The position numbers were made by a program, and so were the translations under genes. Shown here piece by piece: positions 977-1,168 of a DNA stretch of 64,000 nt. The DNA lies in the NCBI RefSeq assembly GCF_011745625.1, contig NW_027191461.1, positions 620,001 to 684,000 on the forward strand, read 5' to 3'. The stretch comes from Cladosporium halotolerans (lineage: Eukaryota). Numbering within the stretch: the stretch's first letter is position 1; each line of letters opens with the position of its first letter. The notes beneath the pieces are model-generated. The model was given only the letters and a program-made list of their open reading frames with translations. It was not told where the DNA came from and searched no databases.

Positions 977-1145
977 ACACCCGTGACGCAGTGGCTTAGC
1001 GTGTCGTTCTTATACTTGTTCTGCGGAACCCGTATGATCCTGCATTGGAGTAATGCGAAAGTCGAGGGTTCGAATCCCTCCGGGTATGTCACTCTTGAAA
1101 TGCCATCAATTGGTAGTTCATTCTCTGACATCCTTACTAGGTGTA
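977..1145 (+). tRNA. tRNA-Ile(UAU) with a canonical 37/38 intron (1015-1052) and a putative second, spliceosomal-type intron (1084-1140) in the 3' acceptor strand
   Basis: Acceptor 5' ACACCCG 977-983; D-stem ACGC/GCGT; anticodon arm TCGTT-CT-TAT-A ... A-TGCGA; variable loop AAGTC; T-arm GAGGG-TTCGAAT-CCCTC. The 3' acceptor strand CGG (1081-1083) + GTGT-A (1141-1145) pairs perfectly only after removing 1084-1140. Confidence 0.85.
1084..1140 (+). other. 57-nt GT-AG spliceosomal-type intron inside the tRNA-Ile gene
   Basis: Donor GTATGT at 1084, branch CTGAC 1125-1129, acceptor TAG 1138-1140. Size and spacing match the mRNA introns in this window. Confidence 0.7.
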
Positions 1146-1161
1146 TATGACGCTTTCGTTC

Positions 1162-1168
1162 TTTTTTT
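1162..1168 (+). terminator. Pol III oligo-dT terminator of tRNA-Ile
   Basis: T7 run. It is the first run of 4 or more T downstream of the tRNA body and lies after the putative acceptor-stem intron. Confidence 0.6.

Follow-up and report, generated by a model that had tools for sequence, protein, structure and literature searches.

A conserved, intron-like insert in the acceptor stem of a fungal tRNA-Ile(UAU) gene

Introduction

The established pathway for removal of tRNA introns at position 37/38 is that of the SEN endonuclease and a ligase. Spliceosomal introns and tRNA introns are treated as unrelated classes with separate substrates in textbooks and in the available parts of two recent reviews (PMC12530127, PMC10275265), and the full-text literature searched, subscription journals lying outside it, yielded no tRNA gene described as having a spliceosomal intron. 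A tRNA-Ile(UAU) gene in the 64,000-nucleotide stretch of DNA analysed here (the window) raises the question of whether the two classes can meet in a single transcript: besides an intron at 37/38, its 3' acceptor strand appears to be interrupted by 57 nt that begin with GT and end with AG. The questions addressed are whether this interruption is genuine, whether it is maintained by selection and what might remove it.

Results

The features of the gene are collected in Table 1. The Rfam tRNA model (RF00005) matched positions 977-1088 with 41 bits (threshold 29) and marked one non-standard pair in the acceptor stem; in a scan of 800-1400 against Rfam at E up to 10 the tRNA alone passed, with three sub-threshold chance matches on the T-arm. 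ARAGORN found a tRNA-Ile(tat) at 976-1090 when introns were allowed and missed the gene when run without the intron option. By its Pfam content the window is fungal, its open reading frames including a protein with Zn2Cys6 and fungal transcription-factor domains, MFS transporters and a GH92 hydrolase.

Table 1 Layout of the tRNA-Ile(UAU) gene, with the mRNA introns used as local standard (positions in the window)
Feature	Position	Strand	Basis or remark
Exon 1 (nt 1-37)	977..1014	+	A1 = 977; acceptor 5' strand ACACCCG
Exon 1 D-arm with A-box-like GCAGTGG; anticodon TAT	1011-1013 (anticodon)	+	
Canonical tRNA intron at 37/38, 38 nt	1015..1052	+	Direct reading and Rfam
Exon 2 (nt 38-68): anticodon stem 3' strand, variable loop, T-arm, C66-G68	1053..1083	+	
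T-arm	1064-1080	+	
Presumed B box GGTTCGAATCC in the T-arm	1066-1076	+	
C66-G68	1081-1083	+	
57-nt insert between nt 68 and 69, putative U2-type GT-AG intron	1084..1140	+	
Insert, donor GTATGT	1084-1089	+	
Insert, putative branch site CTGAC, with A1128 12 nt before G1140	1125-1129	+	
Insert, acceptor TAG	1138-1140	+	
Insert hairpin: ATGTCA/TGACAT, TGAA/TTCA, TGCCA/TGGTA; loop 1106-1110	1086-1131	+	Predicted
Exon 3: G69-T72 and discriminator A73 (GTGTA)	1141..1145	+	
3' trailer TATGACGCTTTCGTTC	1146..1161	+	
T7 run, Pol III terminator; first run of T4 or longer past the T-arm	1162..1168	+	Direct reading
The two GH92 glycoside hydrolase introns	22423-22486 and 22674-22729	-	Pfam profile

Much of the layout had been set out in the initial annotation and was borne out. 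The normal 38-nt intron at 37/38 is present and forms a helix with the anticodon loop, 1010-1015 pairing with 1032-1037. The insert had been said to contain no T4 run, with the T7 terminator beyond it, and the longest T run anywhere in 1084-1161 is indeed T3. The features of a Pol III unit are both there, a downstream T7 run and an internal B box, the latter presumed from the box consensus. The first run of four or more Ts stands 16 nt past A1145 as against 73 nt past G1088, and a T run some 16 nt behind the 3' end of a tRNA is at the usual distance. The expectation that standard tRNA finders would mis-call the 3' end was also borne out, Rfam placing it at 1088 and ARAGORN at 1090, as opposed to 1145.

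The 3' acceptor strand can be read in two ways. Read contiguously it is CGGGTAT-G, with a C2:A71 mismatch and G73; when 1084-1140 are left out it becomes CGGGTGT-A, which makes seven of seven Watson-Crick pairs with ACACCCG and has A73. This pair of readings, too, was as first annotated. The cloverleaf minus the 57 nt is predicted to be more stable than the contiguous one (-24.0 versus -21.2 kcal/mol), and A73 is an identity element for isoleucyl-tRNA synthetase (IleRS). In the minimum free energy (MFE) fold of 971-1161, positions 975-981 pair with 1140-1146, the distal GGTGTAT, and the insert forms a separate hairpin. The annotated extension of the acceptor stem by two base pairs into the leader (A975-T1146 and T976-A1145) occurs in this fold, but it is not conserved, the divergent orthologue described below having C at -1.

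A second tRNA gene in the window, tRNA-Met(CAU) at 5854-5957 (+; Rfam 52 bits), has an intron at the canonical position, where 34 letters stand in Rfam. It carries a C4:A69 mismatch in its acceptor stem with a T4 run close behind, and no hidden GT-AG solution is visible. Since this gene tolerates a C:A pair in the acceptor stem, C2:A71 alone is no proof that the tRNA-Ile needs repair.

The two readings were distinguished by comparison with other sources. Four public runs (X12, X6, X7 and X15) were compared over 800-1400, three of them DNA or of unspecified kind and the fourth, X15, an RNA library. Two contigs, in the runs of two relatives, represent uninterrupted Ile-UAU genes, in each of which the closing CGGGTGT-A is followed after about 20 nt by a T4 run. 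One of these, a 605-nt contig (X12 record 2), is from another locus with different upstream letters; it aligns with 977-1085 and continues GTA TCAGCG...TTTT, and its listed differences and gaps from the window are confined to the canonical intron, where there are many substitutions and six deleted letters. The other, of 2361 nt (X6 record 8), aligns with 977-1014 and 1061-1085 and continues GTA ATTGATC...TTTT, 107 letters taking the place of the 38-nt intron and the first eight letters of exon 2. Thus the canonical introns of these paralogues are very different and their exons the same or nearly so, and removing 57 nt from the window gene yields exactly the 3' end that the paralogues carry in contiguous form. 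It follows that the 57 nt have truly been inserted and that the gene originally ended in the GTGTA now at 1141-1145.

The interrupted form itself was found in three or four other sources. X12 record 1, which runs from 800 to 1400, has 12 substitutions and two indels, its sole difference within 977-1168 being at 1110; in X6 record 7 (862-1400) all 12 substitutions fall outside 977-1168; X7, of which 923-1069 and 1115-1264 are covered, hardly differs from the window. Intact and interrupted Ile-UAU copies therefore coexist in the same runs of relatives (X12 and X6), so AUA decoding need not depend on the interrupted gene.

A metagenome scan with a pattern of the T-arm and acceptor gave at least 118 loci. 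Among the matches listed, 117 are without the interrupted form, nearly all being uninterrupted tRNA genes of the ordinary kind; the remaining one, L111, is an interrupted orthologue that has diverged. Its flanks match those of the window no better than chance (57 of 117 positions upstream, 80 of 131 downstream), the upstream share being below that of shuffled inserts (33.3 of 57). All 74 exon letters, in contrast, are identical: 38/38 in exon 1, 31/31 in exon 2, and GTGTA, which with the next 15 trailer bases (1141-1160) matches at 20/20. The canonical introns (50 nt in L111, 38 nt in the window) agree at 30/38 positions. The inserts (59 and 57 nt, respectively) agree at 50/57, a match that none of 2000 shuffles equalled (mean 33.3, maximum 41). 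A scan of prokaryote genomes with a 17-mer over the junction of exon 2 and insert matched at 21 places, the Ile 5' half being absent from all of them, and these are put down to chance.

The donor GTATGT and the acceptor TAG are kept in L111, X6, X12 and X15. The insert of L111 also retains GTATGTCA, CTGACATCC and TACTAG|GTGTA, its branch region becomes TACTGAC, and its substitutions and indels are concentrated in 1092-1110; the initial annotation had proposed just such an alignment, and the splice signals and GTGTA are in fact kept around a more variable core. A T run is likewise present downstream in L111. In the anticodon-intron helix, L111 has U-A where the window has C1015-G1032, and this compensatory change argues for a living gene with a working pre-tRNA. 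Taken together, the interruption is real, transcribed, selectively maintained and intron-like.

Some observations on the surroundings of the gene may be recorded here. A TATA-like element, TATATATA (907-916), lies about 60 nt 5' of the tRNA start and has a counterpart in L111, TATATAA (about 29-36), the flanks being otherwise unalignable; the tRNA-Met(CAU) gene also has a TATA-like element, about 45 nt upstream (5808-5816). In the trailer, CTTTCG (1153-1158) is complementary to CGAAAG (1057-1062).

The insert was then compared with mRNA introns of the same window. A crude screen for introns bridging open reading frames was too noisy to give a consensus, and the local standard was provided by the GH92 gene, in which two introns could be validated because the Pfam profile continues unbroken across them (1-266, 277-332, 335-463). 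Intron 1 (56 nt) reads GTAAGT..CTAAC..TAG and intron 2 (64 nt) GTAAGT..CTGAC..CAG. As first annotated, the donor, branch point and acceptor of the insert are like those of nearby mRNA introns: its boundaries fit GT...AG with the fungal 5' splice site consensus GTRNGT, its putative branch site fits CTRAY close upstream of the 3' splice site, and its 57 nt are within the local intron size. At the level of sequence, it carries every hallmark of a spliceosomal intron. The arrangement of CTRAY 8-30 nt before YAG, followed by GTGTA, occurs at two sites in the 128,000 positions of both strands of the window, this site being one, so that an accidental GT, CTGAC and YAG in correct spacing is unlikely; the comparative data in any case make the question of chance irrelevant. 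Elsewhere in the window, a C/D-box snoRNA of the snR60/Z15 family (RF00309, 60.6 bits) was found at 62786-62885 (+), with a candidate host-gene intron nearby at 62403-62453.

An unforeseen property of the insert, absent from the initial annotation, is that it is predicted to fold as a conserved and stable hairpin in which the donor pairs with the branch site. The predicted fold has z = -3.44 for the window insert (1/200 shuffles as good) and z = -2.52 for that of L111 (3/200), compared with z = -0.37 (68/200) and z = +0.37 (122/200) for GH92 introns 1 and 2, respectively. The insert is thus far more structured than both validated mRNA introns and atypical locally. Its predicted basal stem pairs ATGTCA of the donor with TGACAT of the branch site, and this stem would have to melt for U1 and U2 to bind. 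If the fold is correct, the basal pairing could alone account for the conservation of the donor and branch letters. All five insert differences seen in X15 and X12 fall within hairpin loops, a distribution as compatible with structural constraint as with an intron core that is free to vary. Signal letters that are unpaired in the fold (C1125 and the tail 1132-1140, including TAG) are also kept in L111. The hairpin is of only about 15 bp, with internal loops, and may hold both halves of the 3' acceptor strand together. A joint fold of window and L111 with RNAalifold was uninformative on the hairpin, the automatic alignment of the insert core being poor.

The trailer is unusual as well. 3' Trailers of tRNAs normally drift, and that following A73 here, TATGACGCTTTCGTT (1146-1161; 275-290 in L111), is identical in the divergent orthologue; no explanation for this was found.

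RNA evidence came from the metatranscriptome X15, in which a single contig of 183 nt covers 976-1153, five further upstream letters being unaligned. It differs from the window at six positions, two in the tRNA intron (1016 and 1031) and four in the insert core (1094, 1106, 1107 and 1109), and it keeps both intervening sequences, showing the insert co-transcribed with the tRNA and unspliced. The contig begins at about -6 and stops 8 nt beyond A1145, the one end agreeing with a short leader and the other lying shortly ahead of the terminator. RNA libraries of this kind may contain some DNA; judged by its short length and these ends, the contig has the look of a discrete Pol III precursor and not of DNA carried over. 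A joint of 1083 to 1141 was present in no contig of the four runs, three of which are DNA or of unspecified kind. Little mature tRNA reaches data of this sort, and forms that are rare or short are lost from view in contigs, so the missing joint neither shows nor excludes splicing.

As to where the insert came from, a tandem duplication of the 3' half of the tRNA was considered and rejected: local alignment of the insert to 977-1083 scores 15.0, which 1377 of 2000 shuffles equalled, and for the L111 insert against its own tRNA 200 of 2000 shuffles were as good. Copies of the insert were sought in 800-976 and 1141-1300, where no significant match was found (1912 and 433 of 2000 shuffles as good, respectively), and a repeat scan of 900-1300 showed short repeats of chance size only. 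An introner-like repeat family is a possible source, the search for copies having covered 800-976 and 1141-1300 and that for repeats 900-1300.

Discussion

Removal of 1084-1140 by the spliceosome is the best and most economical explanation of these results, and we put its chance of being right at about even, the RNA form seen so far being the unspliced one. That the insert is excised by some mechanism, whichever it may be, is moderately probable. On the spliceosomal explanation, one copy of tRNA-Ile(UAU) would carry an mRNA-type (U2-type) GT-AG intron at 68/69 in addition to the usual endonuclease-type intron at 37/38. Pol III would transcribe from a few bases upstream of A1 to the T7 run, through both intervening sequences, a step for which the X15 contig gives some support. 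The insert would then fold as the predicted hairpin, C66-G68 being held beside G69-A73, and the spliceosome would remove 1084-1140 by way of GTATGT, CTGAC (A1128) and TAG, joining G1083 to G1141. With the 7-bp acceptor stem and A73 restored, RNase Z could cut after 1145 and CCA could be added. Finally, the SEN endonuclease and tRNA ligase would remove 1015-1052.

Several results count against the spliceosome. The 3' exon would be of roughly 20-28 nt, no precedent for the spliceosome acting on a pre-tRNA was found, and splicing does not account for the conservation of the trailer. The insert could instead be retained, which we regard as doubtful: RNase Z would cut after G1088 to give a variant tRNA with C2:A71 and G73, and the hairpin with the remainder (1089 to about 1165) would be a functional long trailer, either a small RNA or a control on 3' processing, resembling the tRNA-linked hairpin transcripts of a herpesvirus. 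The unspliced form being the only one seen agrees with this, as do a hairpin that is significantly stable and conserved, unlike the local mRNA introns, and a trailer (1146-1161) that is kept though splicing needs none of it; the contiguous reading, at 41 bits, is still above the 29-bit Rfam threshold, and the tRNA-Met of the window has its own C:A mismatch. A retained insert leaves unexplained, however, why the exact GTGTA of the intact paralogues should stand behind a YAG and a correctly spaced CTGAC, and why letters that the hairpin does not pair (C1125 and 1132-1140) should be conserved in L111. It also sets aside the A73 of those paralogues, an identity element for IleRS, and gives much weight to a hairpin of about 15 bp broken by internal loops. 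Keeping the hairpin while using the distal 3' strand, so that it protrudes from the acceptor stem of the mature RNA, is scarcely credible. The MFE fold of 971-1161 does draw this arrangement, with 975-981 paired to 1140-1146, but the synthetase, the elongation factor and the ribosome would be expected on general grounds to collide with a protrusion of 57 nt, and we know of no precedent for one in a tRNA acceptor stem.

It is unlikely that another system, either SEN with the Trl1 ligase or some other nuclease acting on the hairpin, excises the insert and joins the exons, the likeness to splice signals being a by-product of the stem. The conserved hairpin would bring both junctions together, and non-canonical tRNA introns removed by an endonuclease occur in archaea, Cyanidioschyzon merolae and nucleomorphs according to the available text of PMC4090602. 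That same portion of the source has no such introns in fungi, and inspection by eye of the MFE folds gave no bulge-helix-bulge at the two junctions (1083/1084 and 1140/1141), where two 3-nt bulges would have to enclose a helix of 4 bp: the last letters of exon 2 are unpaired with the last letters of the insert, the first letters of the insert are off register with exon 3, and the exons flanking both junctions share one strand of the acceptor helix. A by-product of the stem would moreover require GT, CTGAC and YAG to have arisen by accident in the correct spacing. Still less favoured, and very unlikely, is a decaying pseudogene or chance resemblance, in which a copy redundant with intact ones was disabled by the 57-nt insertion. 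Intact paralogues do exist in relatives, and insertions in one of several synonymous tRNA genes are seen as probable pseudogenes in the review literature, as far as the accessible part of PMC4090602 goes. A pseudogene would not be expected to keep 74 of 74 exon letters in common with L111 between flanks that match no better than chance, nor an insert match reached by none of 2000 shuffles; the compensatory change in the anticodon-intron helix and the discrete contig in the RNA library X15 also speak against it.

The proposal of a spliceosomal intron, made in the initial annotation, has thus come through in part: the insertion is a true one and its signals are conserved, whereas the one RNA contig is unspliced and the 1083/1141 joint was missing from all four runs. 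The further proposal was that maturation of this AUA-decoding tRNA may need both splicing machineries; the intact Ile-UAU copies in the runs of relatives count against part of it.

Removal by the spliceosome would make this the first tRNA needing that machinery, a claim for which belief and disbelief are equally warranted at present. A structured GT-AG intron would have become fixed in the acceptor stem and be selected across a fungal clade, and the Pol III transcript would pass to the spliceosome in the nucleus and then to SEN and ligase; splicing could in this way gate the supply of an AUA-decoding tRNA. If true, the substrate range of the spliceosome extends to a second class of Pol III transcript, and the gene offers a natural case in which to study how the spliceosome is recruited, after transcription, to an RNA that is highly structured and whose 3' exon is very short. 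It would have a bearing, too, on the way in which introns colonise non-coding RNAs, and would mean that genes of this kind are systematically mis-annotated by tRNA gene finders, which here place the 3' end at 1088-1090 and not 1145.

Comparison with known systems

The canonical intron of this gene has familiar counterparts. The intron of eukaryotic tRNA-Ile(UAU) is widely conserved, as described in the available part of PMC12530127, and the 38-nt intron at 37/38 resembles those described there in pairing with the anticodon, with a compensatory change in L111. This likeness covers 1015-1052 only and does not extend to the 57-nt insert.

A second intervening sequence outside 37/38, beside a canonical one, is a feature shared with tRNA introns of archaea, C. 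merolae and the nucleomorphs of cryptophytes and chlorarachniophytes, and there as here standard gene finders mis-call the gene (PMC4090602, in the portion available). Within that portion, nucleomorphs and C. merolae are the only eukaryotes with non-canonical tRNA introns. Those introns are of bulge-helix-bulge type and cut by an endonuclease (PMC4090602, same portion), whereas the present insert has GT...AG and a putative branch site, shows no such motif on inspection of the folds and is found in a fungus.

The other comparison is with mRNA-type introns of non-coding RNA genes. The hosts listed in the accessible text of PMC5855946 are the U6, U2, U5 and U1 snRNAs and rDNA: the Pol III-transcribed U6 of Schizosaccharomyces pombe, U2, U5 and U1 of Rhodotorula, and the rDNA of ascomycetes. 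The present insert is like these in being a short GT-AG sequence with a putative branch site, in a conserved, structured non-coding RNA of a fungus that is not transcribed by Pol II, and in its apparently lineage-specific insertion (PMC5855946, as available). It is unlike them in its host, a tRNA, which does not appear in that list; reverse splicing at the spliceosome's active site, moreover, has no obvious application to a tRNA, and here the tRNA needs a second, unrelated splicing system and the insert is a conserved hairpin. By analogy, the closest mechanistic precedent would be U6 of fission yeast, a Pol III-transcribed snRNA gene that has a spliceosomal intron.
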